From Ramlibacter sp. (GTDB lineage: Bacteria; Pseudomonadota; Gammaproteobacteria; Burkholderiales; Burkholderiaceae_C), in contig DATHWV010000066.1 of the NCBI GenBank assembly GCA_035460205.1, forward strand, positions 33,411-97,410: a stretch of 64,000 bases of DNA. Reading direction: 5' to 3'. Each line of letters begins with the position of its first letter. The stretch's first letter is position 1. Position numbers and translations under genes: made by a program. Below, piece by piece: positions 8,149-24,517 of the stretch. Under the pieces are notes generated by a model that made no database searches, was not told where the DNA came from, and was given only the letters and a program-made list of their open reading frames with translations.

Positions 8149-9579
8149 ATGGGTGCCAAATTGAAGGTGGCAGGTCTCCTCACGATGGGGGCGCTGGCTG
8201 GTGCATTGACGACCATTCAATTCCAGGCCGAGGCGCGCAACACCTACGGCCCGCTGCCGCTGGAGGAAATGCAGCAACTCGCCGCGGTGTTTGGCATGGT
8301 CAAGAACGACTACGTCGAACAGGTGGACGAGAAGAAGCTGATCACCGATGCCATCTCCGGCATGGTGGCCGGGCTGGACCCGCATTCCCAGTACTTCGAC
8401 AAGAAGAGCTTCAAGGAATTCCGCGAAGGCACAACCGGCAAGTTCGTCGGCGTGGGCATCGAGATCGGCATGGAAGACGGCCTGGTCAAGGTGGTCTCCC
8501 CGATCGAAGGCTCACCCGCCTTCCGCGCCGGGCTGAAGTCCGGCGACCTGATCACCAAGATCGACGACTCGGCCGTCAAGGGCCTGTCGATGGACCAGGC
8601 GGTCAAGCGCATGCGCGGCGAGCCGGCCACCAAGGTCATGCTGACGATTTTCCGCAAGAGCGAGAACCGCAGCTTCCCGGTCACGATCACCCGCGAGGAG
8701 ATCCGCGTGCAGAGCGTGCGGGCCAAGGAAGTGGAACCCGGCTACGCCTGGATCCGCGTGACCCAGTTCCAGGACCGCACGGTGGAAGACTTCTCGCGCA
8801 AGCTGGAAGACATCTACAAGCAGGACCCGAACATCAAGGGCGTGATCCTGGACCTGCGCAACGACCCGGGCGGCCTGCTCGAAGGCGCCGTGGCCATTGC
8901 CTCGGCCTTCCTGCCGTCTGACTCGGTGGTCGTCAGCACCAATGGCCAGATCGCCGAATCGAAGGCGACCTTCCGCGCCACGCCTGACAACTACCTGCGC
9001 CGCGGCGGCGCAGACCCGCTGAAGAAGCTGCCGGCCTCGCTGAAGACGGTGCCGATGGTCGTGCTGGTCAACGAAGGCTCGGCCTCGGCCAGCGAAATCG
9101 TCGCCGGCGCGCTGCAGGACCACAAGCGCGCCACACTGATGGGTGCGCAGACCTTCGGCAAGGGCTCGGTGCAGACCGTGCGCCCGCTGACCGCCGACAC
9201 CGCGTTGAAGATCACCACTGCGCGCTACTACACGCCCAGTGGCCGCTCGATCCAGGCCAAGGGCATCGTGCCGGACATCTGGCTGGATGAAACGGCCGAA
9301 GGCAATGTCTTCGCCGCGCTGCGCACCCGCGAAGCCGACCTGGAAAAGCACCTGGGCAATGGCGACGAAAAGGACGAAGCGCGCGAGAAGGCCCGCGAGG
9401 AAGCGCGCAAGAAGCTTGAAGAGCAGGTCGCCAAGTCCAAGGAACCGCCCAAGCCGCTGCCCGAGTTCGGCAGCGCCGAAGACTTCCAGCTGGTCCAGGC
9501 CCTGAACCAGCTCAAGGGCAAGCAAGTCATGGTCAGCAAGTCCATGACCGAGCGCAAGGCCGAGGCCGCGACCGAATAA
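8149..9579 (+). CDS. ctpA: Carboxy-terminal processing protease, peptidase S41A with PDZ domain
   Basis: LDPHSQY, GVGIEI (PDZ), ILDLRNDPGGLL, catalytic SASASEIVAGALQD, TFGKGSVQ. N-terminal signal/anchor. Confidence 0.95.
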   Translation: MGAKLKVAGLLTMGALAGALTTIQFQAEARNTYGPLPLEEMQQLAAVFGMVKNDYVEQVDEKKLITDAISGMVAGLDPHSQYFDKKSFKEFREGTTGKFVGVGIEIGMEDGLVKVVSPIEGSPAFRAGLKSGDLITKIDDSAVKGLSMDQAVKRMRGEPATKVMLTIFRKSENRSFPVTITREEIRVQSVRAKEVEPGYAWIRVTQFQDRTVEDFSRKLEDIYKQDPNIKGVILDLRNDPGGLLEGAVAIASAFLPSDSVVVSTNGQIAESKATFRATPDNYLRRGGADPLKKLPASLKTVPMVVLVNEGSASASEIVAGALQDHKRATLMGAQTFGKGSVQTVRPLTADTALKITTARYYTPSGRSIQAKGIVPDIWLDETAEGNVFAALRTREADLEKHLGNGDEKDEAREKAREEARKKLEEQVAKSKEPPKPLPEFGSAEDFQLVQALNQLKGKQVMVSKSMTERKAEAATE

Positions 9580-9598
9580 GCGCGCTGCAAGCCACCCG

Positions 9599-9644
9599 AG
9601 GCGAAGCCGGCGGCCCTTGTGCCACCGCTTCGCCTTTGTTGTTT
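9599..9644 (+). terminator. Intrinsic terminator after ctpA
   Basis: AGGCGAAGC...GCTTCGCCT stem followed by TTGTTGTTT. Confidence 0.65.
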
Positions 9645-9669
9645 CCGACCCTGCCGGTTGGCCTGAAGA

Positions 9670-10473
9670 ATGACGCAAGACCACGGCCTGAATGACGGCG
9701 CAGACGATGGCCTGAGCGACGACGCGCTGCTGCGCTACTCGCGCCACCTGCTGCTCGACGAGATCGGCATCGAAGGCCAGCGCCGGCTGCTGGCCTCGCA
9801 TGCACTGGTGATCGGCGCTGGCGGACTGGGCTCGCCGGTTGCGCTGTACCTGGGCTCGGCCGGCGTCGGGCGTTTGACCCTGGTCGATGCCGACACGGTG
9901 GACACCACCAACCTGCAGCGCCAGATCGCCCACAGCCAGGCCCGCGTCGGCCAGTTGAAAGTTGAATCCGCCCGCGAAGCCGTGCTGGCCTTGAACCCCG
10001 GTGCCCAGGTCACCGCCGTGGCGCTGCGTGCCGATGCCGGGTGGCTGGACGCCGCTGTGGCCGAAGCGGACGTGGTGCTGGACTGCAGCGACAACTTCGC
10101 CACGCGCCATGCGATCAACCTCGCCTGCGTGCACCACGGCAAGCCGCTGGTGTCCGGCGCCGCCATCGGTTTCGACGGCCAGGTCTCGGTCTACGACCCG
10201 CGCCTGCCCGCCTCTTCCTGCTACGCCTGCCTGTTCCCGCCCGACAGCGCGCCCGACGAAGCCCGCTGCGCCACGATGGGCGTGTTTGCACCGCTGGTGG
10301 GCATCATCGGCAGCATGCAGGCCGCGGAAGCCTTGAAGCTGCTGGCCGGCATCGGCACCAGCCTCGCCGGCCGGCTGCAGATGCTGGACGCGCGCCGCAT
10401 GGCCTGGAGCGAGATCCGGCTCGCGCGCCAGGCTGGCTGCCCGGTCTGCAACCCTGGCCCCGCGCCGGGTTAA
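9670..10473 (+). CDS. HesA/MoeB/ThiF-family adenylyltransferase
   Basis: RYSRHLLL, GAGGLG, NLQRQI, DCSDNF, and two CxxC zinc motifs (CYAC, CPVC). Confidence 0.93.
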   Translation: MTQDHGLNDGADDGLSDDALLRYSRHLLLDEIGIEGQRRLLASHALVIGAGGLGSPVALYLGSAGVGRLTLVDADTVDTTNLQRQIAHSQARVGQLKVESAREAVLALNPGAQVTAVALRADAGWLDAAVAEADVVLDCSDNFATRHAINLACVHHGKPLVSGAAIGFDGQVSVYDPRLPASSCYACLFPPDSAPDEARCATMGVFAPLVGIIGSMQAAEALKLLAGIGTSLAGRLQMLDARRMAWSEIRLARQAGCPVCNPGPAPG

Positions 10474-10547
10474 GCTCCCTTCCCCAGGCGATCGAAACCC
10501 CGCTTTTCCGGGGTTCCGGTCACGTCTTCCGATCTAGCCTTGTCTCG

Positions 10548-11486
10548 ATGGACGCCACCACCAAAGCCGACACCGCAAAACCCAAGCTCACGGCCCGCAA
10601 CTTTCCCAGCGCCGAGCAGGAAGCCTCCCAGGAGGCCACCCAGCTTCTGCCGGCCGCGCCGCGCTACGACGGTCCCGAAAGCAGCTACCGCCTGGCTTTC
10701 ACCGACACCGATTTCCTGCTGCGGCCCGAGCTGCGCCCCGTGCGCATGCAACTGGAGCTGCTGAAGCCGGAACTGGTGCAGCAGGAACAGGGCATCGAGA
10801 GCACCATCGTGATCTTTGGCAGCGCCCGCATTCCGGCGGAAGCGCTGGCCAGCGAGCAACTGGCCACCGCGCAGGCCAGCGGCAACGCGGCGGCGGTCAA
10901 GCGCGCCGAGATGCAGCTGCGCATGAGCCGCTTCTACGAAGAAGCGCGCCGCTTCGCGCACCTGGTCACCGCGCGCTCACAGACGCTGGCCACGCCCCTC
11001 TACGTGGTCACCGGTGGCGGCCCGGGCATCATGGAAGCCGGCAACCGCGGCGCCTTCGAGTGCGGTGGCAAAAGCATCGGCCTGAACATCGTGCTGCCGC
11101 ACGAGCAGGCACCGAACCCGTACATCACGCCGGAGCTGTGCTTCCAGTTCCACTACTTCGCGCTGCGGAAGATGCACTTCCTGATGCGCTCGGTCGCACT
11201 GGTCGCCTTCCCCGGTGGCTTCGGCACGCTGGACGAGCTGTTCGAGGCCATGACCTTGATGCAGACCGGCAAGTGCCGGCGCCGGCCCATCCTGCTCTTC
11301 GGCCGCGAATTCTGGACCCGGCTGATCAACTTCGACTGGCTGGTCGAGACCGGCATGATCAGCCCCGGCGACGTGGACCTGTTCCGCTTCGTCGAGACCG
11401 CCGAAGAGGCCTGGCAGATCCTGGCGCAGGACTACGGCCTGCACGCCGGCGACCCGCAAGCACGCGAGTTCGAAGAGGACATTTGA
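10548..11486 (+). CDS. LOG-family protein (nucleotide monophosphate phosphoribohydrolase, Rossmann fold)
   Basis: IFGSAR, VTGGGPGIMEAGNRGA, FALRKMHF, FPGGFGTLDE signature. Confidence 0.9.
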   Translation: MDATTKADTAKPKLTARNFPSAEQEASQEATQLLPAAPRYDGPESSYRLAFTDTDFLLRPELRPVRMQLELLKPELVQQEQGIESTIVIFGSARIPAEALASEQLATAQASGNAAAVKRAEMQLRMSRFYEEARRFAHLVTARSQTLATPLYVVTGGGPGIMEAGNRGAFECGGKSIGLNIVLPHEQAPNPYITPELCFQFHYFALRKMHFLMRSVALVAFPGGFGTLDELFEAMTLMQTGKCRRRPILLFGREFWTRLINFDWLVETGMISPGDVDLFRFVETAEEAWQILAQDYGLHAGDPQAREFEEDI

Positions 11487-11574: not shown

Positions 11575-12489
11575 ATGCTGAACAAAGTCACCCTCATCGG
11601 CGCGCCGACCGACATCGGCGCCGGCGCTCGCGGCGCGAGCATGGGCCCGGAAGCCTTGCGCGTGGCCAACATCGGCGCGATCCTGCAAAGCCACGGCATC
11701 GAAGTGCAGGACCGCGGCAACCTCAACGGCCCGCCCAACCCCTGGCTGCCGCCGGACCAGGGCTACCGCCACCTGAGCGAAGTGGCGGCCTGGAACCAGC
11801 TGGTGCACGACGCCGTCTACACCGAGCTCAGCGATGGCCGCATGCCCATCCTGCTGGGGGGCGACCATTGCCTGGGCCTGGGCTCCATCAGCGCGGTGGC
11901 CCGCCATTGCCGCGACACCGGCAAGAAGCTGCGCGTGCTGTGGCTGGACGCCCATGCCGACTTCAACACCAGCGACCTGACCCCCAGCGGCAACATCCAC
12001 GGCATGCCTGTGGCCTGCCTGTGCGGCTACGGCCCGACCGAGCTGACCTCCATCGGCGGCCAGGTGCCGGCGATCAGCCCGAAGTGGCTGCGCCAGATCG
12101 GCATCCGCAGCGTGGACGCGGGCGAAAAGAAGTTCGTGCACGAGGTGGGCCTGGAGGTCTACGACATGCGCTACATCGACGAAATGGGCATGCGCCACAC
12201 GATGGAGTTGGCGCTGGCCACGATGGATGCCAACACCCACCTGCACGTCAGCTTCGACGTCGACTTCCTGGACCCGGACCTCGCCCCCGGCGTCGGCACC
12301 ACGATTCCTGGCGGTCCGACCTACCGCGAAGCCCAGCTCTGCATGGAAATGATCGCCGACACCGGCCGCATGGGCAGCCTGGACGTGATGGAGCTGAACC
12401 CGGCACTCGACGTGCGCAACAAGACCGCCGAGATCGCCGTGGACCTCATTGAAAGCCTGTTCGGCAAGAGCACCTTGATGCGCAAGTGA
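11575..12489 (+). CDS. rocF: Arginase
   Basis: GGDHC, WLDAHADFN, PSGNIHGMP, SFDVDFLDP, ELNP Mn-binding motifs. Confidence 0.95.
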   Translation: MLNKVTLIGAPTDIGAGARGASMGPEALRVANIGAILQSHGIEVQDRGNLNGPPNPWLPPDQGYRHLSEVAAWNQLVHDAVYTELSDGRMPILLGGDHCLGLGSISAVARHCRDTGKKLRVLWLDAHADFNTSDLTPSGNIHGMPVACLCGYGPTELTSIGGQVPAISPKWLRQIGIRSVDAGEKKFVHEVGLEVYDMRYIDEMGMRHTMELALATMDANTHLHVSFDVDFLDPDLAPGVGTTIPGGPTYREAQLCMEMIADTGRMGSLDVMELNPALDVRNKTAEIAVDLIESLFGKSTLMRK

Positions 12490-12573
12490 GGCGCTCGGCC
12501 GTCCAGGCCGATGCGTCACCAGCTTCAGCTAGCATCGCCCTCCTTCGAATTTCGTTTTGGCCAGGGAGGGCCC

Positions 12574-13284
12574 ATGAAACGTTTCTGCGGTATTTCGGTG
12601 GTGGCGCTTGCCGCCGCCATCCTGGGCGGCTGCGGCGGTGGCGACGCCGACGAATCCGGCTCCAGCACGGTTTACGCCACCAATGCGGCCTGGGCCAACC
12701 TGTATGCCAGCGCCCACAGCTGGTCGCTGTCGGGCACGGTCAGCGGCTCCGGACAGAACACCGCGGTGCAGTCCACGCTGGACCTGAGCCTGCTCGCCGA
12801 CGGGACCTTTCCCGGCACCGGTGACGCAGCGAAGATCCGCCGGCTGACCACCACCGCGACCGCCAACGGCGGCTCGTCCAGCGACTACGTCACCCACTAC
12901 CTGAACGCCAGCAACGCGTTCATTGGCACCGTGAGCTCAGACGGCAGTTGCGCGCTGCCCAGCAACGTTGGCCTGCCGCCGACCTCGGCGGCCATGGGCA
13001 GCAGCGGACCGCTCGCCTCGTGGACCGAATACAGCAGCTGCTCGGCGGGCTCGCCGCAGATTGGCACCGGTGCCGCCACCTGGTCGGTTGAGAATGCAAG
13101 CAGCACGCCGTACTTCTGCGTCACCAACACCTATACCTCGACGGCAGCCGGCAACAGCTTCAGCTCTACCGAGAAGGACTGCTTCGAGATCAATGCGTCC
13201 GGCACCATTGGCTCCTCGGCCAAGATCTCGGCGGTGTACACGCAAAACGGCGTGAACACGACCGTCTCGATGTCGACGTTCTGA
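12574..13284 (+). CDS. Hypothetical Ser/Thr-rich lipoprotein
   Basis: GGAGGG RBS, lipobox ILGG-C followed by GGG, and a beta-strand-like Ser/Thr-rich body with four further Cys. Confidence 0.75.
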   Translation: MKRFCGISVVALAAAILGGCGGGDADESGSSTVYATNAAWANLYASAHSWSLSGTVSGSGQNTAVQSTLDLSLLADGTFPGTGDAAKIRRLTTTATANGGSSSDYVTHYLNASNAFIGTVSSDGSCALPSNVGLPPTSAAMGSSGPLASWTEYSSCSAGSPQIGTGAATWSVENASSTPYFCVTNTYTSTAAGNSFSSTEKDCFEINASGTIGSSAKISAVYTQNGVNTTVSMSTF

Positions 13285-13296
13285 CCTCCGGAAACC

Positions 13297-14172
13297 TCAA
13301 CCCACCGTCACCGCGCTGGTGATCCAGCCTTCCAGCGGGTCCACGCCCGCTGGAAGGCCCAGGCCAGGTTGCTGCTGGGCCCAGGCGGCCTGCAGCAGGC
13401 ACAGGACGGCGTCCAGCCTGTCGCCGGTGGCGTCGGCCACCAGCGCATCTCGCTGGGCATGGCTGAGGCGCAGGCGCAGGGCCAGGCGCGTGCGGCCTTG
13501 CTCCAGCGCGTCCACCAGGTCCTTGCGGGCAATCAGGCGTTCCGGCGTCTGGCGTGCCTTGTCGTCCGCCTTGTACGAACGGTTGCCCAGCAGCTCGCGC
13601 GCCAGCAGGCCGGGATAGGCTTCCAGTGCGACACGCTGCGGCGCATCCGGCGCCGGCATCAGGCCCGGCAACCAGGCGCCGGCAGCGCGCAGCAGCGGCA
13701 CGCCGGCATGCAGCATGTAGGCCACCGGTGGGTTGACCCACTTCATGCTGGGCGATGACCCTGCCGGCCCGTCACAGGCACGGTGCGCGAACTTGCCGCC
13801 GACCGGGCGGGCGTCGCAGAAGGCCGAGAAATGGCCACGGATCTGTTCCCGCGTCAGCCCGGCGTAGTGGTCCATCAGCGCGGCCCAGTCGCTGGGCCAG
13901 CCGAGCTGGAGCACCAGCTCTCGCGGCAGGCCGAACGGCAGGTCGAAACCGCCGAGCCAGGCAGGCGTGGCGGCGAGCCAGTCGCCAAAACCGCTCAGTG
14001 TTTCGTGCGCGTGCAGCCCGTCCAGCCGCACGACCGCCCCAGCCCGTGTGCCACGCGCCACGATGACGGGCTTGCGCTTGCTGGGCGCACTGGAAAAGTC
14101 CACGCCCAGCAGCAGCGGCAGCTGCGCCCACACAGGCAGCACCGAAGAGACAGGGTTCGCAGCAGAAGACAT
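13297..14172 (-). CDS. DUF429-like protein (predicted RNase H-fold nuclease)
   Basis: LGVDFSSAP, GGFDLPFGLP, LEAYPG, DRLDAVLC, EGWI motifs. Confidence 0.75.
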   Translation of the reverse strand: MSSAANPVSSVLPVWAQLPLLLGVDFSSAPSKRKPVIVARGTRAGAVVRLDGLHAHETLSGFGDWLAATPAWLGGFDLPFGLPRELVLQLGWPSDWAALMDHYAGLTREQIRGHFSAFCDARPVGGKFAHRACDGPAGSSPSMKWVNPPVAYMLHAGVPLLRAAGAWLPGLMPAPDAPQRVALEAYPGLLARELLGNRSYKADDKARQTPERLIARKDLVDALEQGRTRLALRLRLSHAQRDALVADATGDRLDAVLCLLQAAWAQQQPGLGLPAGVDPLEGWITSAVTVG

Positions 14173-14217
14173 CGGCGGATTGTCCGTGGACCCGGGAGTT
14201 GAAACAAAATCGCGGCC

Positions 14218-14682
14218 ATGCATGCATTCCATCGCCTGGCCAGGCGACTCTGTCTGTTGCTGCCACTGCTGCTGGCGGCCTGCGGCACGCCGCCGCGCCT
14301 CACGCGGCTGACACCGGAGCAGTCGTCGAACATCGCGATCCATGCGATGGGCCTGGTTGGCACACCCTACCGCTACGGCGGCAACACGCCGGAAGGCGGC
14401 TTCGACTGCAGCGGCCTTGTCGGCTACGTCTACCGCAACCAGGCAGGGGTGGCGCCGCCGCGCACGGTGGCCGAGCTGAACCAGTTTGGCCAACCCGTCG
14501 AGGCTGGCGAGCTGCGCACTGGCGACCTGGTGATCTTCGGCCGCGGCCGGCCCACGCACGCCGGCATCTACGTGGGCGACATGCGCTTCGTGCACGCCCC
14601 GTCCACCGGCGGCGAGGTGCGGCTGGACCGGTTGGACAGCGGCTACTGGGCAAAGCAGCCGACCGCCTACCGCCGCCCCTGA
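14218..14682 (+). CDS. NlpC/P60 (C40) peptidoglycan endopeptidase lipoprotein
   Basis: Lipobox LAA-C; GTPYRYGG, GFDCSG (catalytic Cys), HAGIY, FVHAPS. Confidence 0.93.
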   Translation: MHAFHRLARRLCLLLPLLLAACGTPPRLTRLTPEQSSNIAIHAMGLVGTPYRYGGNTPEGGFDCSGLVGYVYRNQAGVAPPRTVAELNQFGQPVEAGELRTGDLVIFGRGRPTHAGIYVGDMRFVHAPSTGGEVRLDRLDSGYWAKQPTAYRRP

Positions 14683-14720: not shown

Positions 14721-15869
14721 ATGGTTCGGATGTCGCGACGTGTCAGGTGGTGGTTGGGCGCAGGCATGGTCGCGCTGGTGGCCCTGGGTGGGCTTTACCA
14801 GTTGCTGCTGCACCGGCTGGCCGCCGTGCTGCACGACCATCTCGGCCCGCGCGCCAGCGTTGGCGCCATCTCGGTCGACTGGAACGGGCTGACGGTGCAG
14901 GACCTGCGCCTGGCCGCCGCGCCAGGCTGGCCGGCGCCATCCGAGCTGAGCGCCCGCCGCGTCTTTGTGCAACCGGCGCTGCGCAGCCTGTTCTCCGGGC
15001 CATGGCAAGTGCACAGCATCGTGGTTGACGGCGCCACCTTGAGCCTGCTGCGCGGTCGGGACGGCAAGCTGCGCCTGCTGCCCGGGCTGCTGCCTGCCGA
15101 CAGTGCCGCCGCGCCGCCTGCCGCCCCGGCGCGCGTCCGCCCGGCGGCGGCGGTTTCGGCCGCCGGCGCGCCCACCGAACCTGACCATCCCACGCTGGTG
15201 ATCCGTGAAGTGCAACTGCGCGACCTGCAGATCGATTTCTATGACGATTCGCTGAAGCCGGTCCGCGCCAAGCCCCACCACCTGCAGCTGGACGAACTCG
15301 ATGCCAGCATCGGCAACCTGCAACTGCCCGCGCTGAACCAGCCGTTGACGCTGAAGCTGCGCGGCCTCCTGCGCGGCGCCGGTGGCGGCGCCAACCACGA
15401 CGGCGACCTCAGACTGGACGGCGAGCTGACACCCGCCACGCACGACGCCGACCTCAGCGCCCAGCTGAAAGGCGTGGACCTGCGGGTGCTGCAGCCCTAC
15501 CTGCTGAAGGTCGCCGAAGGCGGCATTCAACGCGGCCAGCTGGACCTGCAGCTCAAGGCCGTGGTCAAGGACGAGCATCTGCACGCCCCAGGCCGCGTGA
15601 CGCTGAACGGCCTCGCGCTGAATCACAGCGGCAACTGGTGGGACGGCCTGGGCACAGCCAGCCGCCAGGCGGTGCTGGACACGATGGCCCACAAAGGCCA
15701 GCTGGACGTGAGCTTCACCTTGGAAGGCCGGCTGGACGACCCGAACTTCTCGATCAACGACAGCCTGGCCAAGCGTTTTGCGTCCGGCATGGCCGAAGCC
15801 GTTGGTGTCAGCGTGGGCGGCGTGGTCGAAGGCGTCGGCCAGATGTTCAAGGGCCTGCTGGGGCGCTGA
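14721..15869 (+). CDS. DUF748/AsmA-like membrane-anchored protein
   Basis: N-terminal TM helix, beta-rich body, and ending [13 protein letters not shown]...GVVEGVG. Confidence 0.65.
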
Positions 15870-15973
15870 ATGGCGCGGGCGGCGGCGGCGTGCGTTCCTG
15901 CGCGGGGCCGCGCCGGGCGCCGCGTGGGGTTATCGCCACAAACGCCGACACCTGGGACAATGCCGGTTCTCGA

Positions 15974-18466
15974 ATGCCGGACGTGCCTGTGGCCCGCCCG
16001 GCTTTGGTCTTTCCGGTCCCCTTCCCTGCCGCTGCCGTGTCCGCCATCCTCGAAGCCCCCCTCCGTTCCGATGCCAAGGCCAATGCCAAGCCAAAGGCAT
16101 TGACGGCTTACCGTCCGTACTGGGCCAAGCGCTTCGGCACGGCACCTTTCCTGCCCATGAGCCGCAAGGAAATGGACAAGCTGGGTTGGGACAGCTGCGA
16201 CATCATCATCGTCAGCGGCGACGCCTATGTGGACCACCCCAGCTTCGGCATGGCGGTCATCGGCCGCACGCTGGAGGCACAGGGCTTTCGCGTGGGCATC
16301 ATCGCGCAGCCGGACTGGCAGTCGGCCGACGCCTTCCGCGCCCTGGGCAAGCCCAACCTGTTCTTCGGCGTGGCCGCCGGGAACATGGATTCGATGATCA
16401 ACCGCTACACGGCCGACCGGAAGATCCGCAGCGACGACGCCTACACGCCCGGCAACGTCGGCGGCAAGCGGCCGGACCGGGCCACGCTGGTCTACACCCA
16501 GCGCTGCAACGAGGCCTTCAAGGACGTGCCGGTGGTCATTGGCGGCATCGAGGCCAGCCTGCGCCGCATTGCCCATTACGACTACTGGAGCGACAAGGTT
16601 CGCCGCTCGGTGCTGGTGGACGCCAAGGCCGACCTGCTGGTCTACGGCAATGCCGAACGCGCCATCGTCGAGATCGCCCACCGGCTGGCGGCAAAGAAGC
16701 CCATCGAGAGCATCACCGACATCCGCGGCACCGCCTTCATGCGCAAGCCCGACGACCTGACGCTGGACGGCTGGTACGAGGTCGACTCCAGCGAGGTCGA
16801 CACGCCCGGCAAGGTCGACAAGCTGCTGAACCCCTACCTGACCATCGAGGAACAGGCCGACGACAACGGTGCCAGCTGTGCCAAGGCCGAAGCCGCGAAG
16901 GCTGGCGACACGCCACCCGCGGCCGACGGCGCCAAACCGATGCTGCTGATCCGCCGCCCGGTCGAGAAGCTGGGCAGCCGCGCGATCACCACGCCGCGCG
17001 AGCGCACGGTGATCCGCCTGCCGGCCTACGAGCAGGTGAAGAGCGATAACGTGCTCTACGCCCACGCCAACCGCGTGCTGCACCTGGAGACCAACCCCGG
17101 CAACGCGCGCGCCATCGTGCAGCGCCACGGCGAAGGCCACACCGCGCGCGACGTGTGGATCAACCCGCCGCCGCTGCCGCTGTCCACCGAGGAGATGGAC
17201 CACGTCTTCGACCTGCCCTACGCGCGCAGCCCGCACCCCAGCTACGCGGACGCCACCGGCAGCCACGACGGCGAGACCAAGATCCCCGCGTGGGAGATGA
17301 TCCGCTTCAGCGTGAACATCATGCGGGGCTGCTTCGGCGGCTGCACCTTCTGCTCCATCACCGAGCACGAAGGCCGCATCATCCAGAGCCGCTCGGAAGA
17401 CTCGGTGATCCGTGAGATCGAAGAGATCCGCGACAAGGTCAAGGGCTTCACCGGCATCATTTCCGACCTCGGCGGGCCGACCGCCAACATGTACCGCATC
17501 GGCTGCAAAAGCCCGGAGATCGAGGCCGCCTGCCGCAAGCCCAGCTGCGTCTACCCCGGCATCTGCTCCAACCTGAACACCGACCACGGCCCGCTGGTGA
17601 AGATGTACCGCCGCGCCCGTGCGCTGCGCGGCGTGAAGAAGATCCTGATCGGCTCCGGGCTGCGCTACGACCTGGCGGTGCAGTCACCCGAGTATGTGAA
17701 GGAACTGGTGACGCACCACGTGGGCGGCTACCTGAAGATCGCGCCGGAGCACACCGAAGGCGGCCCGCTGTCGAAGATGATGAAGCCGGGCATCGGCACG
17801 TACGACCGCTTCAAGGCGATGTTCGAGAAGTTCAGCGCCGAGGCCGGCAAGAAGCAGTTCCTCATCCCGTACTTCATCGCCGCCCACCCGGGCACCAGCG
17901 ACGAGGACATGATGAACCTGGCGATCTGGCTCAAGCACAACGGCTTCCGCGCGGACCAGGTGCAGACCTTCTACCCTTCGCCAATGGCCACCGCCACTGC
18001 GATGTACCACTCGGGCCACAACCCGCTCAAAGGCATCAGCCGCGACGCGCGCAAGGGCGAGCGTGTGGACATCGTCAAGGGCGACAAGCGCCGCCGCCTG
18101 CACAAGGCCTTCCTGCGCTACCACGACTCGAACAACTGGCCGCTTCTGCGTGAGGCCTTGAAGGACATGGGCCGCGCCGACCTGATCGGCAACGGCAAGC
18201 ACCATCTCATTCCAACCTGGCAGCCAACCACCGATGGCAGCTACCAGAGCGCGCGCCGCAGCAATTCCACACCGGTGGCCAAGACCACCACCGCCAAGCC
18301 GGCGCCGGGCCGCATCCTGACCCAGCACACCGGCCTGCCGCCGCGTGACAACGGCAGCCGCCCGGTGCGTCCTGGCGTGGCCAAGCCAGCGGCCCGGCCT
18401 GTGGCCGCGAAGCCGGCGGGGCGCCCCGCCTCGGCGGCCAAGCCCGGCGGCCGCAAGCCGCGCTGA
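15974..18466 (+). CDS. ygiQ: YgiQ-family (UPF0313) radical SAM protein
   Basis: [29 protein letters not shown] (CxxxCxxC), [29 protein letters not shown]. Start uncertain (ATG 15974 or GTG 16037). Confidence 0.93.
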
Positions 18467-18600
18467 GTCAGCAGGCGCCCACAGGCGTCTGCCAGCAGTG
18501 CACACTCGCTTTTGCGCTGGCCGGCGCCCATGGGCCGCGATAGGATGGCAGCGCAGCTGGCGCCTCGCCCGCCGGCCTCTGAATCCCTCAGGAGAACCCC

Positions 18601-18897
18601 ATGTCCACCGCTTCCCGCCTGCGCCACCTGACCCCTTTGCTGCTGTCGTTTGCCATGGCGTTTGGTGCCGTCGGCGCCGCCCAGGCGCAAGCCGCAGCCC
18701 CGACCGAGCAGGCCGCCCCGGCCAAGGCCAAGAAGACCAAGAGCGCGCACAAGGCGCACAAGAGCTCGCACAAGGCCAAGAAGAGCAGCAGCAAGAAGGC
18801 CAAGACGGCCAGCGCCGCGAAGAGCAGCCATCACGCGAAGAAGAACCACAAGGGCGCGCATACCGCGTCGCTGGCCGCTGTCGGCACTTTCGCCTGA
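18601..18897 (+). CDS. Small exported Lys/His/Ser/Ala-rich basic protein (Asr-like)
   Basis: Strong AGGAG RBS, Sec signal ending AQA, and low-complexity mature part KAKKTKSAHKAHKSSHKAKKSSSKK with biased AAG codons. Confidence 0.78.
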   Translation: MSTASRLRHLTPLLLSFAMAFGAVGAAQAQAAAPTEQAAPAKAKKTKSAHKAHKSSHKAKKSSSKKAKTASAAKSSHHAKKNHKGAHTASLAAVGTFA

Positions 18898-18957
18898 ACC
18901 TCCTGAACCGATGCCCGGCTGCGCACCGACAGGCCCGGCCGCTTCCTTCGGGCTGAA

Positions 18958-20550
18958 TCAAGCCCGATGCGGCAGCAGCGTCGTCTGCCACAGTGACTCG
19001 CCGCGCATGTCGCGCAGGTGCACCGTCAGCGCCGCACTCTTGCCGTCAATCTGCACCTCGCCGAAGAACTGCAGGCCGGCGCTGGGCGGCAGGTTGCTCT
19101 GGCCGGGCGCCGGGGCCTTGATGTAGCGCAGCTCGGGGCCGAAGGTGTTGTCCAGCGGGTTCGGCCCAAAGGTACCTGCATTCAGTGGGCCGCTGACGAA
19201 TTCCCAGAACGGGTCGAAGTCCTGGAACTGCGCGCGGTTCGGGTGGTAATGGTGGGCCGCGGTGTAGTGCACGTCGGCCGTCAGCCACACGGTGTTGCGG
19301 ATGCGCTGGTGCTTGATGAAGGACAGCAGCTGGGCGATCTCCAGCTCGCGGCCCAGCGCCGGGCCGTCGCCATTGGCCACGGCCTCAAACTTGTCGCGGC
19401 CCTGGGTGTCCTTGCCGTCGGGCACCAGCAGGCCGATGGGCATGTCGGCCGCAATCACCTTCCAGGTCGCGCGGCTGGCTTTCAGGCCGTCGCGCAGCCA
19501 GGCCATCTGCTGCGGGCCGAGGAAGGCGGAGGACGCGTCCAGCGTGGGCTGCAGGTTGAAGCTGTTGGGCCCGCGGTAGCTGCGCATGTCGATCACGAAC
19601 ACGTCCAGCAGCGGGCCGTACGGAATGCGGCGGTACACGCGCTGCTCTTCCTCCTGCGCGAACCAGCGCATCGGCGCGTTTTCCAGGAAGGCCCGCGCGC
19701 CGCGCGAGGTCAGCAGCGCGACGTTTTTCTCGGTGTAGCGCGCGTCGCCTGAAACGTCCTTCGAGTCGGACCAGTTGTTGGTCACCTCGTGGTCGTCCCA
19801 CTGCCAGAGCTGCATGACCTCGGCGGCGAAACGGCGCTGGTGGTCGTCGAGCTGGTTGTAGCGGTGCGCGCCGCGGTACTCCTTCAGCGTCTCGGCGACC
19901 TTGCTCTTTTCTTCGGTCAGCACGGTGTTGCGCCAGGTGCTGCCATCGGACGCTTTCAGCTCGGCCTGCAGCGGGCCGTCGGCGTAGATCGTGTCGCCGC
20001 TGTGGATGAAGAAGTCCGGCTCGCGCTGGCGCATGGCTTCGTAAATCGTCATGCCGCCCAGGTCACCGTTGATGCCGAAACCCTGGCCGACGGCGTCGCC
20101 GGACCACAGGAAGCGCACATCGCGGCGCGTTGCCGGCGCGGTGCGGAAGCGACCGGTCACCGGCTCGGAGCGCACGCCACCAGCCAGGTCTTCCCACTGC
20201 ACGCGGTAGAAGATCTCCTGCCCGGCCGGCAAGCCTGTCAGGTCCACGCGCGCGGTGAAGTCGGTGGTTTCCAGCGCATACGGGCCGCGCAGCTTGCGCG
20301 CATGGGCAAAGGCCGGCGTGGTGTCCCATTCGACCCACAAACGCGCCGCCCGGTCCGAGCGCGCCCAGACGATGCCCCGGTCGGCCAGCACGTCCCCGCT
20401 CTGCACGCCGGACGGAAAACTCGGCCGCGCCGCGTCCCGCGTGATTGCCGCCGGCGCCTGGGCATGCGCGAAGATGCCGCTCAGGCCGCCGCCACTCAGT
20501 GCAGCGGAAGCGATCAGCAGGCGACGGCGAGGCAGGATGAGGCTGGACAT
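18958..20550 (-). CDS. phoD: Alkaline phosphatase D, Tat-exported
   Basis: Twin-arginine PRRRLL; GVQSGD, IHSGDTIYAD, WDDHEVTNNW, DMRSYR, WLTADVH motifs. AGGAG RBS. Confidence 0.95.
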   Translation of the reverse strand: MSSLILPRRRLLIASAALSGGGLSGIFAHAQAPAAITRDAARPSFPSGVQSGDVLADRGIVWARSDRAARLWVEWDTTPAFAHARKLRGPYALETTDFTARVDLTGLPAGQEIFYRVQWEDLAGGVRSEPVTGRFRTAPATRRDVRFLWSGDAVGQGFGINGDLGGMTIYEAMRQREPDFFIHSGDTIYADGPLQAELKASDGSTWRNTVLTEEKSKVAETLKEYRGAHRYNQLDDHQRRFAAEVMQLWQWDDHEVTNNWSDSKDVSGDARYTEKNVALLTSRGARAFLENAPMRWFAQEEEQRVYRRIPYGPLLDVFVIDMRSYRGPNSFNLQPTLDASSAFLGPQQMAWLRDGLKASRATWKVIAADMPIGLLVPDGKDTQGRDKFEAVANGDGPALGRELEIAQLLSFIKHQRIRNTVWLTADVHYTAAHHYHPNRAQFQDFDPFWEFVSGPLNAGTFGPNPLDNTFGPELRYIKAPAPGQSNLPPSAGLQFFGEVQIDGKSAALTVHLRDMRGESLWQTTLLPHRA

Positions 20551-20701
20551 GGCGGGCGCTCCTGAAAGGACAACCCGCCATGCTTGCCGCGAGTTGCGGC
20601 AGCTTGATGACGACCACCCACCGTCGCGGCCACCTCGGTAGCCGTGAAGCACGACAATAGCCCATGGCTAATATCGCGCGCCTGCGCCTGGGAGATCTGG
20701 C

Positions 20702-21919
20702 ATGACGCCGCTGACTGACAAGGAACTGTTGCAGCTCGTACATGACGTGGAGAGTGACCGAGCCGAACGCAAGGAGAGTTGGAAGGGTAGCGCCCCGGAA
20801 AAGGCGCGGGAAGCCGTGTGCGCCTTCGCCAACGATCTGCCGAATCATGCAAAGCCCGGTGTCTTGTTCGTTGGCGTGAAGGACGATGGAAGACCCGCGG
20901 GCCCCGACTTTGTCGTCACGGACCAATTGCTCCAGACCCTGGCTGACATCAAGACCGATGGCAAGCTGACGCCGCCCCCCACCATGACCGTGGCTCGCCG
21001 CACACTCCAGGGGCAGGATGTGGCTGTGATCACTGTCTGGCCGGCGGACGCTCCGCCAGTGCGACTGGACGGCCGGATCTGGATCCGCACCGGACCTCGT
21101 CGTGGACAGGCCACGGCACAGGACGAACGCGTGTTGAACGAGAAACGCCGTTACCGCGACCGAAGTTTCGACGCTCATCCCATTCACGGCTGCTCGCTGG
21201 AAGAGTTGAGTCGGCCGTATTTCGAGAACGAATATTTGCCACAGGCTGTGGCGAGAGACGTTCTGGAAGCCAATGGTCGCAGCTACGAAGAGCGCCTGGC
21301 CTCCCTGGGCATGATCTCCACCGTGGACGATGCCACGCCCACCGTCGCTGGCCTGCTGACATTGGGCAAGAGCCCTCGCACCTGGATTCCTTCGGCCTAC
21401 ATTCAGTTCCTGCGCATTCGTGGCACCGAATGGGGCGACCCAGTGGTGGACGAACAGGAAGTAGATGGCAATCTGGACACCATGCTGCGACGGCTGGATG
21501 AAAAGCTGAAAGCCACCCTTGCCGTGGCGGTGGACTTCACGTCCGGCACGACCACAGAGGTTCGGACCGCACCTTATCCGCTTTCCGCCCTGCAACAACT
21601 GGCACGCAATGCCGTGATGCATCGGACTTACGAAGGCACCAACGCACCGGTGCGAATCTACTGGTTCGATGACCGCATCGAGATCAGCAACCCGGGCGGC
21701 CCCTACGGCGCCGTGACCCAGGAGAACTTCGGCCGTCCCGGCATCAGCGACTACCGCAGCCCGGTGCTGGCCGGCGTGCTCAAGACATTGGGCTTTGTGC
21801 AGCGCTTCGGCTTCGGGATCGCCGAAGCCCGACGTGCGCTGCAAGCCAATGGCAACCCGCCGCCTGAGTTCCAGGTGGAAGCCACCAATGTGCTGGCCAC
21901 GCTTCGGAGGGCGGCATGA
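20702..21919 (+). CDS. Schlafen/AlbA_2 domain fused to an HATPase_c_4 (RecG-C-terminal-like GHKL) domain
   Basis: N-terminal ESDRAERKES..AVCAFAN..GVLFVGVKDDG (AlbA_2); C-terminal ARNAVMHRTY, FDDRIEISNPGG, YRSPVLA, FGFGI. No C-terminal HTH is visible. Confidence 0.85.
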   Translation: MTPLTDKELLQLVHDVESDRAERKESWKGSAPEKAREAVCAFANDLPNHAKPGVLFVGVKDDGRPAGPDFVVTDQLLQTLADIKTDGKLTPPPTMTVARRTLQGQDVAVITVWPADAPPVRLDGRIWIRTGPRRGQATAQDERVLNEKRRYRDRSFDAHPIHGCSLEELSRPYFENEYLPQAVARDVLEANGRSYEERLASLGMISTVDDATPTVAGLLTLGKSPRTWIPSAYIQFLRIRGTEWGDPVVDEQEVDGNLDTMLRRLDEKLKATLAVAVDFTSGTTTEVRTAPYPLSALQQLARNAVMHRTYEGTNAPVRIYWFDDRIEISNPGGPYGAVTQENFGRPGISDYRSPVLAGVLKTLGFVQRFGFGIAEARRALQANGNPPPEFQVEATNVLATLRRAA

Positions 21920-22962
21920 GCGACGGCTCGAATGCTGGCCTGGCCCCTGAGATGCCAACACCGGTCCTCACCTTTTTCAACAACAAAGGGGGAGTCGGCA
22001 AGACTTCACTGGTCTTCCATCTCGCCTGGATGCTGTCTGAGATGGGGAAACGGGTGGTCACCATAGACTTGGATCACCAGGCCAACCTGACCTCGGCTTT
22101 CCTGCCAGAGGAGACATTGGAAGAGCTGTGGGGCGCACAGGAGCCGTTTCCCCAGGCGGACACGATCTTTCGCTGCGTACAGCCACTCACCAAGGCAGGG
22201 GACATTCTCCCGCCCGTCACCCGGCAGATCACGCCACGGCTATTCCTGGTGCCAGGCGACCCATCGCTGGCGGGCTTTGAGGACGATCTGGCCAGCGCCT
22301 GGCATGCAGCCATGTCCAGCAACTTGTATCGGCCATTCCGTTTTCTGACGGCCTTCTGGCAGATCGCACAACTTGCGGCCCAAGCCCATCAAGCCGATCT
22401 CATCCTGGCCGACGTCGGCCCCAACTTGGGCGCGATCAACCGATCTGCCTTGATTGGCAGCGACCACGTCGTGATTCCGCTGGATGCCAGTCTCTTCTCA
22501 CTCCAAGGGCTGCGCAAATTGGGCCCCACATTGACGACCTGGCGAGAGGAATGGCGCAAGCGCGCCGACAACTGGGAAGCTCCGGAGTTCCCTTTGCCTT
22601 CTGGAAGCATGTCCCCTACAGGCTATGTCGTGATGCGCCACACCACGCTGCTTTCCCGCCCAGTCTCGCCCTACAAGAAATGGGCAGACCAAATTCCCGC
22701 GATCTATCGCGAAAGCGTGTTGGGACAACCCGGTATGGCCCCCACCTTGGACCAGGACACCCATTGCCTGGCCCAGCTGAAGCACTACCGCAGCCTCATC
22801 CCCATGTCCCAGGAGGTACGCAAGCCGATCTTTCACCTGAACTCGGCGGACGGCGCCATCGGCAGCCATTCGCAAGCAGTGCAAGACGCCTGGCAAGACT
22901 TCAAGGCGCTGGCGACGACGATCGCCGACCGCATCCATCTGGACACAGTCGGCGATTCCTGA
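21916..22962 (+). CDS. Orphan ParA/MinD-family ATPase
   Basis: Deviant Walker A FFNNKGGVGKT, A' motif IDLDHQANLT, Walker B LILADVGPNLGAINR. ATGA overlap with the upstream gene. Confidence 0.9.
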   Translation: MSDGSNAGLAPEMPTPVLTFFNNKGGVGKTSLVFHLAWMLSEMGKRVVTIDLDHQANLTSAFLPEETLEELWGAQEPFPQADTIFRCVQPLTKAGDILPPVTRQITPRLFLVPGDPSLAGFEDDLASAWHAAMSSNLYRPFRFLTAFWQIAQLAAQAHQADLILADVGPNLGAINRSALIGSDHVVIPLDASLFSLQGLRKLGPTLTTWREEWRKRADNWEAPEFPLPSGSMSPTGYVVMRHTTLLSRPVSPYKKWADQIPAIYRESVLGQPGMAPTLDQDTHCLAQLKHYRSLIPMSQEVRKPIFHLNSADGAIGSHSQAVQDAWQDFKALATTIADRIHLDTVGDS

Positions 22963-22966
22963 AGAC

Positions 22967-24517
22967 TCAAGCGGGCACCCACAACGCTGGCAGGCCCGGC
23001 AGCGTGCGCAGCACGCTGCCCACTTCGCCGCTGCGCACCAGCGTGGTCGCGCGTTCAATTTCGGGTGCGAGGTAGCGGTCGGTGGGCATGGCGGCGCTGT
23101 GCTGGCGCAGCAGTGCGTGCACCCATTCCAGCACCACCGAGCTTTGCAGCGGGCGCAGGAATTCGATGGCCTGGGCCGAGGCCAGCAGCTCGATGCCCAG
23201 GATGTGCGAGACGTTGGACACCATCGGCTGCAGCCGCCGCGCGGCGAAGGTGGCCATCGAGACGTGGTCCTCCTGGTTCGCGCTGGTGGGCAGGCTGTCC
23301 ACGCTGGCCGGGTGGGCCAGCGACTTGTTCTCGCTGGCCAGCGCTGCGGCGGTGACGTGGGCGATCATGAAGCCGCTGTTCAGGCCGGCATCGGCGCTGA
23401 GGAAGGCCGGCAGGCGCGAGACGCTGGCGTCGATCAGCATCGCGATGCGGCGCTCGGCGATGGCGCCGACTTCGGCAATCGCCACGGCCATTGCGTCAGC
23501 CGCGAGAGCGACGGGCTCAGCGTGGAAGTTGCCTCCGCTGATCATCGCCCCGTCTTCAGGGAACACCAACGGGTTGTCGGTCACGGCGTTCGCTTCGCGC
23601 ACCAGCACCAGCGAGGCATGGCGCAACTGGTCCAGGCAGGCGCCGACGACTTGCGGCTGGCAGCGCAGGCAGTACGGGTCCTGCACCCGGTCGTCGCCTT
23701 CTTCGTGCGACGCGCGGATCGCGCTTCCGGCCAGCAAGGCGCGGTAGTACTGGGCGACGTCGATCTGACCAGGCTGGCCGCGCAGCGCGTGGATGCGCGG
23801 GTCGAACGGACCGTCCGAGCCGCGCGCGGCGTCCACCGTCAAAGCGCCAATCACCAGCGCGGCTTCCAGCACCGGTTCGAAGGCGAACAGGCCGTGCAGC
23901 GCCAGCGCGGTGGAGGTCTGCGTGCCGTTGATCAGCGCCAGGCCTTCCTTGGCTTGCAGCACCAGCGGCTCGATGCCGGCATCGGTCAACACGCCGGCCG
24001 CGTGCACACGCTTGCCGTCCACCAGGAACTCGCCCTCGCCCAGCAACGCCAGCGTCATGTGCGACAGCGGGGCGAGGTCGCCCGAAGCGCCGACCGAACC
24101 CTGGCTGGGCACATAAGGGACGAGGCCGGCGTTGAGCACGGCCAGCAGCGTGTCGATCACGACTTCGCGCACACCCGAGTGCGCACGCGCGAGGCTGGCG
24201 GCCTTGGTCGCCAGCATCAGCCGCAGCACTGCTGGCTGCAGCGGCTCGCCCACGCCCACCGAGTGCGAGCGGATCAGGTTCAGTTGCAGCAGCGCCAGGT
24301 CTTCGTTGCTGATGCGCTTGTTGGCCAGTTTGCCGAAGCCGGTGTTCACGCCGTAGACCGGCGCGTCGCCCGCGGCGGCGGCCTGCACGACTGCAGCGCT
24401 GGCGCGGATGGCCGGGCGCGCGGCGTCGTCCAGCTTCAGGGTCACGCCGCCAGCGTGCAGCGCTTGCAGTTGTTCCAGCGTCAGCGCGCCGGGGGTCAGG
24501 GTCAGTTCGGTCGTCAT
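22967..24517 (-). CDS. hutH: Histidine ammonia-lyase
   Basis: [12 protein letters not shown] motif [40 protein letters not shown]. Confidence 0.97.

Follow-up and report, generated by a model that had tools for sequence, protein, structure and literature searches.

A two-gene insert between phoD and hutH

The stretch of DNA analysed here, hereafter the window, comprises 64,000 nucleotides (nt) of contig DATHWV010000066.1 from a Ramlibacter sp. genome and carries, between phoD and hutH, a cassette of two genes for a Schlafen-GHKL protein and a ParA-like ATPase. Both lie on the + strand as open reading frames (ORFs), which were confirmed at 20702-21919 (gene 1, 405 amino acids, aa) and 21916-22962 (gene 2, 348 aa). 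According to Pfam, AlphaFold2, Foldseek and the orthologues, gene 1 encodes a stand-alone 'Schlatpase', and gene 2 is assigned by Pfam, AlphaFold2 and a profile match to 3PG5 as a ParA-like SIMIBI ATPase of the DIP2308/3PG5 subfamily. An original prediction, made from the letters of the window, had described the two ORFs as joined by an ATGA overlap and placed between the phoD upstream region and the hutH stop codon 4 bp away, and had proposed them as a candidate anti-phage or toxin-antitoxin pair in which a Schlafen RNase would be gated by the ParA and/or the GHKL domain; all of these features of the layout were found. We give a probability of roughly 60% to the prediction that the segment was gained by horizontal transfer and holds a two-gene conflict module of the 'ParA-effector' kind.

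The ATGA start/stop overlap of the two genes (21916-21919, + strand) points to translational coupling, with GGAGGG placed 4 nt upstream of the second start. In most orthologues of gene 2, the first residue corresponds to M13 of ORF2; a 4-nt start/stop overlap with a start codon in the ParA frame is kept in 70 of 71 loci, which lends credibility to the ATGA start at 21916. The possibility of spurious ORF calls in GC-rich DNA was considered and rejected, since the orthologues of both ORFs are strong and their folds confident.

As had been noted from the codon usage, the pair is less biased than its flanks toward GC at third codon positions (GC3), the values being 0.73 and 0.745 in the two genes against 0.88-0.90 in phoD, hutH and hutU; the overall GC content is about 0.61 in the pair and 0.68-0.70 in the surroundings. 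Neither gene was found in other genomes of the same genus (36 in the protein search and 60 in the DNA search), and hutH was matched in 44 of these 60 at 72-80% DNA identity. Moreover, an empty site is present in a relative that is about 92% identical, where a 217-nt contig from run X6 joins position 20611 to position 22974 with 16 other letters between them. When this single contig of low depth was read by hand, 7 of the 16 letters proved to be the last two hutH codons and the stop codon with synonymous differences, therefore only 9 nt lie between hutH and the region upstream of phoD in the relative and the insert in the window corresponds to 20612-22966. Near-identical pieces spanning the left junction were also found in run X2 from another study. 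Based on GC3, the lack of matches in the 60 genomes of the genus and the empty site, segment 20612-22966 is a horizontally acquired insert. No direct or inverted repeats, att-like sites, target duplications or recombinase were seen at its ends. In three complete or large genomes of the same genus, synteny with the window breaks off immediately past hutH, hence no insertion boundary was obtained from them.

The insert begins with a leader of unique sequence (20612-20701, + strand), in which a GGGAGA ribosome-binding site lies about 8 nt before the start codon of gene 1, and it ends with the 4-nt spacer (22963-22966) between the stop codons of the convergent gene 2 and hutH. The signal scan found neither a sigma-70 consensus promoter nor a convincing terminator for the cassette. 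A 17-nt inverted repeat (22921-22956, 82% complementary, 2-nt loop) is situated within the last ParA codons before the convergent hutH stop and could form a hairpin that terminates both genes; it is not followed by a T-run. The flanking genes were identified with Pfam, namely phoD for a PhoD-like phosphatase on the left (18958-20652, - strand) and hutH for histidine ammonia-lyase on the right (22967-24517, - strand), which is followed by hutU. The longest ORF of phoD starts with GTG at 20652, and an in-frame ATG at 20550 encodes a twin-arginine (Tat) signal, MSSLILPRRRLL. Such a signal is typical of PhoD, and the true start of phoD is probably the ATG at 20550, which would extend the intergenic region between phoD and the cassette from 49 bp to about 151 bp.

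Domains and partition functions were scanned in ten GC3-supported ORFs between 10041 and 34599 and in the genes flanking the pair. The neighbours from about 10 kb to 34.6 kb are metabolic, encoding arginase, a radical SAM protein, PhoD, HutH, HutU, HutC and amidohydrolases. No ParB or replication domain was found in the scanned genes and no parS consensus within the 64-kb window, in agreement with what had been claimed at first sight. A partition system of the ParABS type was thus rejected, the more so as the ParA protein scores under the equivalog cut-offs (see below). On the left side, the apparent real gene at 15638-18466 is the + strand one for the radical SAM protein (Radical_SAM_N and DUF3362, GC3 0.87), and two long minus-strand ORFs in that region, 15623-17587 and 17684-18991, have no Pfam match; GC3 of the latter is only 0.62.

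Domains and conserved residues of the two proteins

The domains expected of the pair were all matched. In the protein of gene 1, Pfam identified SLFN_AlbA_2 (PF04326) at residues 17-134 (8.6e-14) and HATPase_c_4 (PF13749) at residues 315-401 (5.9e-18), and showed no domain after the latter, so that the C-terminal helix-turn-helix (HTH) often found in such proteins is absent, as was originally noticed. An annotation of gene 1 as a transcription regulator was rejected for lack of an HTH. The AlphaFold2 model has a pLDDT of 85.7, and its best Foldseek match is 3LMM (DIP2311); the N-terminal domain matches SLFN13, SLFN11 and SLFN14, and the C-terminal half matches the CA domains of histidine kinases and PDK-type kinases. 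The Schlafen motif E17-x4-E22-x-K24 (ESDRAERK, 20750-20773, + strand) has E17, E22, R23 and K24 invariant in 68 of the 68 orthologues used for residue conservation, and Ex4(E/D)xK has been named as the catalytic Schlafen motif (Perez Taboada et al., PMC13056530). The second segment pointed out in the original prediction, the GVKDDG loop (residues 58-63, 20873-20890, + strand), is also present; its G58 and G63 are invariant, and D61 or D62 is the candidate third acidic residue. The GHKL ATP-binding domain (21572-21916, + strand), recognised by Pfam as HATPase_c_4 and by its kinase CA fold, keeps the N-box N303 and H307, D324, the GG-P-G loop (332-336) and G364, G370 and G372 in all 68 sequences. 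A profile of the Schlafen protein run against the PDB sequences reached only 3LMM and no mammalian SLFN entries; the proposed correspondence of the active site to that of a Schlafen nuclease is drawn from the start of the Pfam model, the published motif and the fold match. With PADLOC (v2.0.0), gene 1 was matched only by models associated with prokaryotic Argonaute (pAgo), at residues 146-384, because the 'Schlatpase' supradomain is common to the SLFN-pAgo proteins (bioRxiv 10.64898/2026.05.29.728809).

The protein of gene 2 consists of a ParA-type NTPase domain (AAA_31/CbiA/MipZ in Pfam, residues 17-212) and a conserved, family-specific C-terminal region (residues 213-340). Its AlphaFold2 model (pLDDT 85.8, pTM 0.88) has 3PG5 (DIP2308) as the top fold match. 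Furthermore, the profile of gene 2 matches 3PG5 over the full length (E 2.4e-39), whereas Soj is matched in the P-loop part only (1e-15), therefore the protein belongs to a ParA subfamily of its own, in which the C-terminal region is conserved. The deviant Walker A motif KGGVGKT (K24-T30, 21985-22005, + strand) is preceded by N22 and N23 and followed further on by the sensor D51-L-D53-H-Q55 and the Walker B D166. Among 63 sequences, K24, K29, T30, D51, D53, Q55 and D166 are invariant, while conservation at N22/N23 and V27 is at least 90%. The NCBIfam partition models gave scores below their equivalog cut-offs, such as 60.5 bits for NF041546 (cut-off 180) and 56 for TIGR03453 (cut-off 348), and in PADLOC only the N-terminal P-loop of PDC-M28B was matched. 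No full-length named family was found for either protein in PADLOC or NCBIfam.

Linkage, distribution and genomic context of the pair

Close relatives of the ParA-like protein number in the thousands, and a survey with this protein as query, in which each species was represented by a single genome, yielded at least 563 loci, of which the best 80 were used for the detailed counts. In 79 of these 80 loci, tblastn placed the Schlafen gene directly upstream of the ParA gene with 57-84% identity; the sole exception is L079, where unrelated small ORFs lie upstream of the ParA gene. The reverse survey with the Schlafen query, which is unbiased with regard to ParA, covered 399 sampled genomes of the same class as the window genome and detected an orthologue in 15 of them. 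The ParA gene lies directly downstream of all 12 intact Schlafen orthologues (44-62% identity), or of 11 of 11 if the unpublished genome G225, the source of locus L127 and of the fragment L138, is left out. In G046, from another family of the same order, the pair is present in the same arrangement with 72% and 68% identity. No ParA gene was found near the distant Schlatpase-HTH (Schlafen-GHKL-HTH) paralogues of 25-32% identity, therefore the linkage is specific to the HTH-less clade of about 400 aa. Nucleotide homology of the cassette forms one block, which extends from the ribosome-binding site (no earlier than 20691) to just before the ParA stop codon, with none beyond. In addition, the pairwise identities of the two proteins in 61 loci co-vary (Mantel r 0.76), and none of 999 permutations reached this value; as related genomes share history, this co-variation means joint inheritance and transfer and no more. 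The pair is a real, fixed two-gene unit, and the conserved linkage and patchy distribution that had been proposed as a check on its nature were both observed, the pattern not being one of vertical inheritance.

Decay of the cassette was seen in several loci. The Schlafen gene has an in-frame stop codon in L072 (3565-4776) and is reduced to fragments in L045, L046 and L082, and the adjoining ParA gene aligns at near full length. In L135 (2636-3595; genome G400, from the same family as the window genome), an IS5-like transposase gene (DUF772 and DDE_Tnp_1) is inserted in the 3' end of the Schlafen gene, which interrupts the GHKL domain at position 58 of its 89-position profile and sets the Schlafen gene about 1.3 kb from the ParA gene, so that this cassette is inactivated. 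Such decay bears on the idea that the pair is an addiction module resembling toxin-antitoxin systems, in which the Schlafen RNase would be the toxin and the ParA-like ATPase a protein antitoxin acting through a nucleotide-dependent conformational change or through phosphorylation; the module would spread since its loss is costly, and phage sensing would not be its primary role. Decay of the Schlafen gene beside a ParA gene of near full length (L045, L046, L072 and L082, together with the absence of the Schlafen gene in L079 and the insertion sequence in L135) is what this idea would lead one to expect, and so are the tight, translationally coupled two-gene unit, the solitary position of the pair among housekeeping genes in most loci and the high conservation, which suits a host-universal target. 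The same logic has been proposed for the dyad of HEPN(MAE_18760) and ParA/Soj (PMC3710099). However, L045, L046, L072, L079 and L082 were retrieved with ParA and the comparison of gene decay is thus biased toward an intact ParA gene. Besides, the toxin-first order and a large ATPase as antitoxin are atypical for type II systems, no autoregulatory DNA-binding domain is present, the nesting in defence operons described below suits defence equally, and toxin-antitoxin and abortive infection functions are not mutually exclusive. We regard a primary role in addiction as rather unlikely, at about one chance in a handful.

According to the record titles, the 80 loci are distributed over at least eight phyla (Pseudomonadota, Verrucomicrobiota, Planctomycetota, Desulfobacterota, Nitrospirota, Elusimicrobiota, Bacteroidota and Acidobacteriota), and the cassette is chromosomal in hundreds of species; it is mobile between phyla as a unit. 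A role outside biological conflict, either as a housekeeping or regulatory pair acting on DNA or RNA or as a partition-like pair with the Schlafen/AlbA protein as ParA adaptor, would suit the very high conservation, the usual task of ParA proteins in positioning cargo, the binding of nucleic acids by AlbA-type domains and the routine annotation of such proteins as regulators. It is nevertheless very improbable, as the patchiness extends down to the genus level, neither ParB nor parS nor a replicon lies close by, and the cassette is chromosomal in so many species. Moreover, the protein of gene 1 combines an invariant nuclease motif with the lack of an HTH, and its alignment showed no conserved basic peptide at the N-terminus such as those that stimulate ParA ATPases.

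The neighbourhood of the pair in other genomes is partly that of defence genes. A type III Mod-type methylase gene (about 730-790 aa) occurs in 19 of the 80 loci and a ResIII helicase gene (about 910 aa) in about 10, which are labelled MTase_III and REase_III by PADLOC; in L026, L043, L060 and L064 the pair lies between res and mod and is co-directional with them. HmaA and HmaB (E 9e-183 and 2e-129) enclose the pair in L099 and L103, and HmaA-type helicases are also found in L046 and L091. The gap between hmaA and hmaB is a known insertion hotspot in which Septu and PARIS occur (PMC11232893). In total, about one quarter of the loci are within type III restriction-modification or Hma operons. 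The expectation that the pair would be found near defence islands thus held for this quarter of the orthologous loci and not for the window, whose cassette lies outside any defence island. The nesting might indicate that the pair is a guardian of methylation-based defences in the manner of PrrC, namely an accessory of type III restriction-modification or Hma systems that is held latent and fires when a phage inhibits them, the solitary copies being remnants or paired with an unlinked system. In favour of such a guardian are the co-directional positions within res/mod and HmaA/HmaB as well as the Schlafen-HisK-wHTH RNases that serve as auxiliary effectors in BREX and BREX-related loci of at least 1017 taxa (PMC12839542). 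However, about three quarters of the loci, including the window, have no such neighbour, and the partner systems differ in type, suggesting shared hotspots rather than a specific interaction, which also agrees with the Hma gap being a general hotspot for insertion (PMC11232893). We hold this explanation to be improbable, less so than the housekeeping or partition-like role.

Other genes next to the pair or to its distant relatives were recorded as well. In L061 (Candidatus Accumulibacter), a ThsB-like TIR-domain protein is encoded directly downstream of the pair (9093-10580), and three more co-directional ORFs follow the TIR gene, of which the one at 11620-14418 was compared with PADLOC and has no match. 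In L033 (5479-11674), the pair is followed directly, on its own strand, by two mutually overlapping ORFs of 675 aa and 1400 aa that neither Pfam nor PADLOC matches. Full-length but distant members of the ParA subfamily (25-35% identity) occupy accessory spots. One of them (26% identity) is encoded together with a DUF3024 gene between the c2 repressor and gp24 of the P22-like Salmonella phages ST160 (L120, 3054-4607) and SE1, and likewise in ST-32; in lambda, rexAB occupies that position, and the DUF3024 and ParA genes are possibly a prophage exclusion pair with a different partner. Another (Orf317, 27% identity, 90% coverage) is encoded by a lone gene at the att-proximal end of the filamentous Pseudomonas prophage Pf1 (L121, 3067-4020). 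Vibrio and Pantoea plasmids also carry members, and their neighbours there are a gene for a small serine recombinase, type I restriction-modification genes and one Abi gene.

Known relatives and predicted function

The pairing had been thought to match no named system. It is true that no full-length PADLOC system covers it; however, it is a variant of the 'ParA-effector systems', for which a recent preprint lists 'histidine kinase fused to Schlafen' as effector type (iii) (Li, Burroughs, Aravind, October 2026; bioRxiv 10.64898/2026.10.19.760177). A match to a system that already has a name was among the grounds for refutation given with the original prediction, and such a match is now partly established. 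The pairing is thus already catalogued, and the window holds a further member of a computationally predicted kind. Like the members of that kind, the cassette has a ParA-clade NTPase gene in an operon with one effector gene, here a histidine-kinase-type ATPase fused to a Schlafen RNase, and a wide, patchy distribution. Gene 2 has the KGGxGK[ST] motif with its extra lysine, the DxD sensor and the Walker B aspartate of ConB1, invariant in the 63 sequences. In the same preprint, the signatures of PriB1/ConB1 are an Asn at the N-terminal edge of Walker A, a Val in Walker A and a Gln two residues after DxD, and gene 2 carries these residues as N22/N23, V27 and Q55. The assignment to ConB1 is suggested by such signature residues and the operon content. 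In the portion of the preprint at hand there is no mention of a fixed 4-nt overlap, of nesting in res/mod or HmaA/HmaB, or of a link to 3PG5 and 3LMM, and the conserved C-terminal region of ParA and the empty-site evidence for insertion of a bare two-ORF unit were likewise not found in the literature texts examined. The pairing is also not mentioned in PMC13056530, bioRxiv 10.64898/2026.05.29.728809, the BREX survey PMC12839542 or the serine-recombinase paper PMC13552941.

Several other systems resemble the cassette in part. Gene 1 is like the Slfn-HisKinase class of prokaryotic Schlafens (pSlfns), or 'Schlatpase', in that a Schlafen domain with Ex4ExK is joined to an ATPase of the Bergerat fold in which the N- and G-boxes are intact. 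The pSlfn systems are single genes with a fused sensor (Ig-like, DUF262 or Argonaute), whereas here no sensor or HTH is fused and a separate ParA-like ATPase is obligatory. The dyad of HEPN (MAE_18760) and ParA/Soj (Anantharaman et al. 2013, PMC3710099) likewise combines an RNase gene with one encoding an ATPase of the ParA/Soj-like type, predicted as toxin and regulator, and its effector fold is HEPN instead of Schlafen-GHKL; the MAE_18760 HEPN family also occurs fused to Schlafen (PMC3710099). The best structural matches of genes 1 and 2, DIP2311 (3LMM) and DIP2308 (3PG5), come from one genome, that of Corynebacterium diphtheriae, in which they are three genes apart by locus-tag numbers, and both are structural-genomics entries with no assigned function. 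They share only about 21% identity with the cassette proteins, the chain deposited for DIP2311 is longer, at 583 aa, and the two are not adjacent by tag numbers; the analogy of the two matches nonetheless suggests that DIP2308 and DIP2311 may be a distant version of the same partnership, the solved structures of which went unnoticed. With ParABS, Soj and MinD, gene 2 has the NTPase fold and the deviant Walker A in common, and it differs from them in scoring far under the NCBIfam cut-offs, in having no ParB or parS and in a C-terminal region common only to 3PG5. In PARIS, the AriB nuclease, which cuts tRNA, is kept latent by the AriA ATPase until a phage cue leads to its release. The likeness of the cassette to PARIS, which also serves as a comparison in PMC13056530, would lie in the mode of working proposed here; the folds of PARIS are unrelated (an ABC-type ATPase and a Toprim nuclease), and no PADLOC match to it was found in the cassette.

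The best-supported reading of the function is that of a latent RNase effector under two nucleotide switches. The candidate status of the pair in defence or toxin-antitoxin action is supported by its joint conservation, its patchiness, the quarter of loci in defence operons and the invariant Ex4ExK. RNase activity, ATP-driven assembly and an immune role are predicted for the pair from relatives in the literature. Prokaryotic Schlafens defend through tRNA cleavage and abortive infection (PMC13056530), and in the SLFN-pAgo protein RzAgo, GHKL drives an ATP-dependent tetramerisation that gives an active Schlafen nuclease (bioRxiv 10.64898/2026.05.29.728809). For its part, ParA has been proposed to bind invader DNA, with the effector released when ParA is overcome, as described in bioRxiv 10.64898/2026.10.19.760177, and the ParA/Soj partner of a HEPN RNase has been proposed as an antitoxin (Anantharaman et al., PMC3710099). 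By analogy, the Schlatpase would be a latent toxic effector, in which the binding of ATP to the GHKL domain would lead to oligomerisation and thereby to an active Schlafen nuclease, and this nuclease would cut tRNA or rRNA and shut down translation, resulting in abortive infection or growth arrest. The ParA-like ATPase may form an ATP-dependent dimer, probably DNA-bound, and act as a sensor or switch that restrains the nuclease in healthy cells; invading DNA or a product of the invader would perturb ParA, and the nuclease would be released or licensed. Both proteins would be translated in a fixed proportion through the 4-nt overlap. As to which of the proteins senses and what triggers it, these are roles that we infer.

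A number of observations weigh against a conflict module with an immune task, a function that is itself predicted by analogy. Both proteins are unusually conserved for immune sensors, with 57-84% identity across phyla, which is a poor fit to a sensor in an arms race. The preprint describes 'rapidly evolving C-terminal extensions', as a description and not as a criterion, for ParA-effector systems, whereas the C-terminus of this ParA is about as conserved as its core, the column identity being 0.72 at residues 213-340 (0.80 at 284-340) and 0.79 in the core. In the protein of gene 1, the third acidic residue is not strict, since D61 is found in 58 and D62 in 48 of the 68 orthologues, with at least one Asp at the two positions in 65. 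No fusion protein of Schlafen and ParA was found among the longer proteins matched to the ParA C-terminal region, which is weak evidence. Two Schlafen-HisKinase proteins, for which the presence of a partner is not stated, gave no defence in E. coli (PMC13056530). Furthermore, 69.6% of pSlfns lie within 10 kb of known defence genes (PMC13056530); known defence genes were not found within 10 kb of the cassette in the window, where the neighbours are metabolic, and most of the other loci similarly adjoin housekeeping or metabolic genes. The pair was present on only 1 of 2.9 million viral contigs, thus carriage by phages is rare.

The high conservation speaks for a cue or a partner interface that is itself conserved rather than for the recognition of variable phage proteins, and the failed defence of the HisKinase-class Schlafens could be explained by a missing partner or by unsuitable phages, each of which could suffice. 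We tentatively consider a different account of the switch, with odds clearly against it and comparable to those of the addiction module, in which ParA would be the obligatory partner of the HTH-less clade of Slfn-GHKL proteins and would read a universal host cue, for example the nucleotide state or the occupancy of nucleoid or DNA, instead of a phage protein, its ATP cycle directly gating the GHKL-driven assembly of the nuclease. If true, the reading of a host cue could explain the 57-84% conservation across phyla and possibly also the lack of defence from HisKinase-class Schlafens alone, provided that the partner was lacking. It could also explain why a bare two-ORF unit occurs in at least eight phyla as well as in restriction-modification and Hma operons without a recombinase, repeats or conserved flanks.

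The Schlafen nucleases are common to human antiviral immunity and bacterial phage defence, and Schlafen-GHKL proteins are the most abundant bacterial Schlafen class, accounting for 34-59% in two surveys. The function of their stand-alone members is so far predicted, and the cassette is a compact, conserved and easily cloned two-gene version of them. To a predicted kind of system, and not to a new one, the window adds an instance, an insertion site and a comparison with the empty site. The cassette also bears on whether ParA-family ATPases act in immunity, as recently predicted. With active sites intact in the two partners and structures solved for distant relatives of each, the pair offers an entry point for the control of an RNase by ParA.

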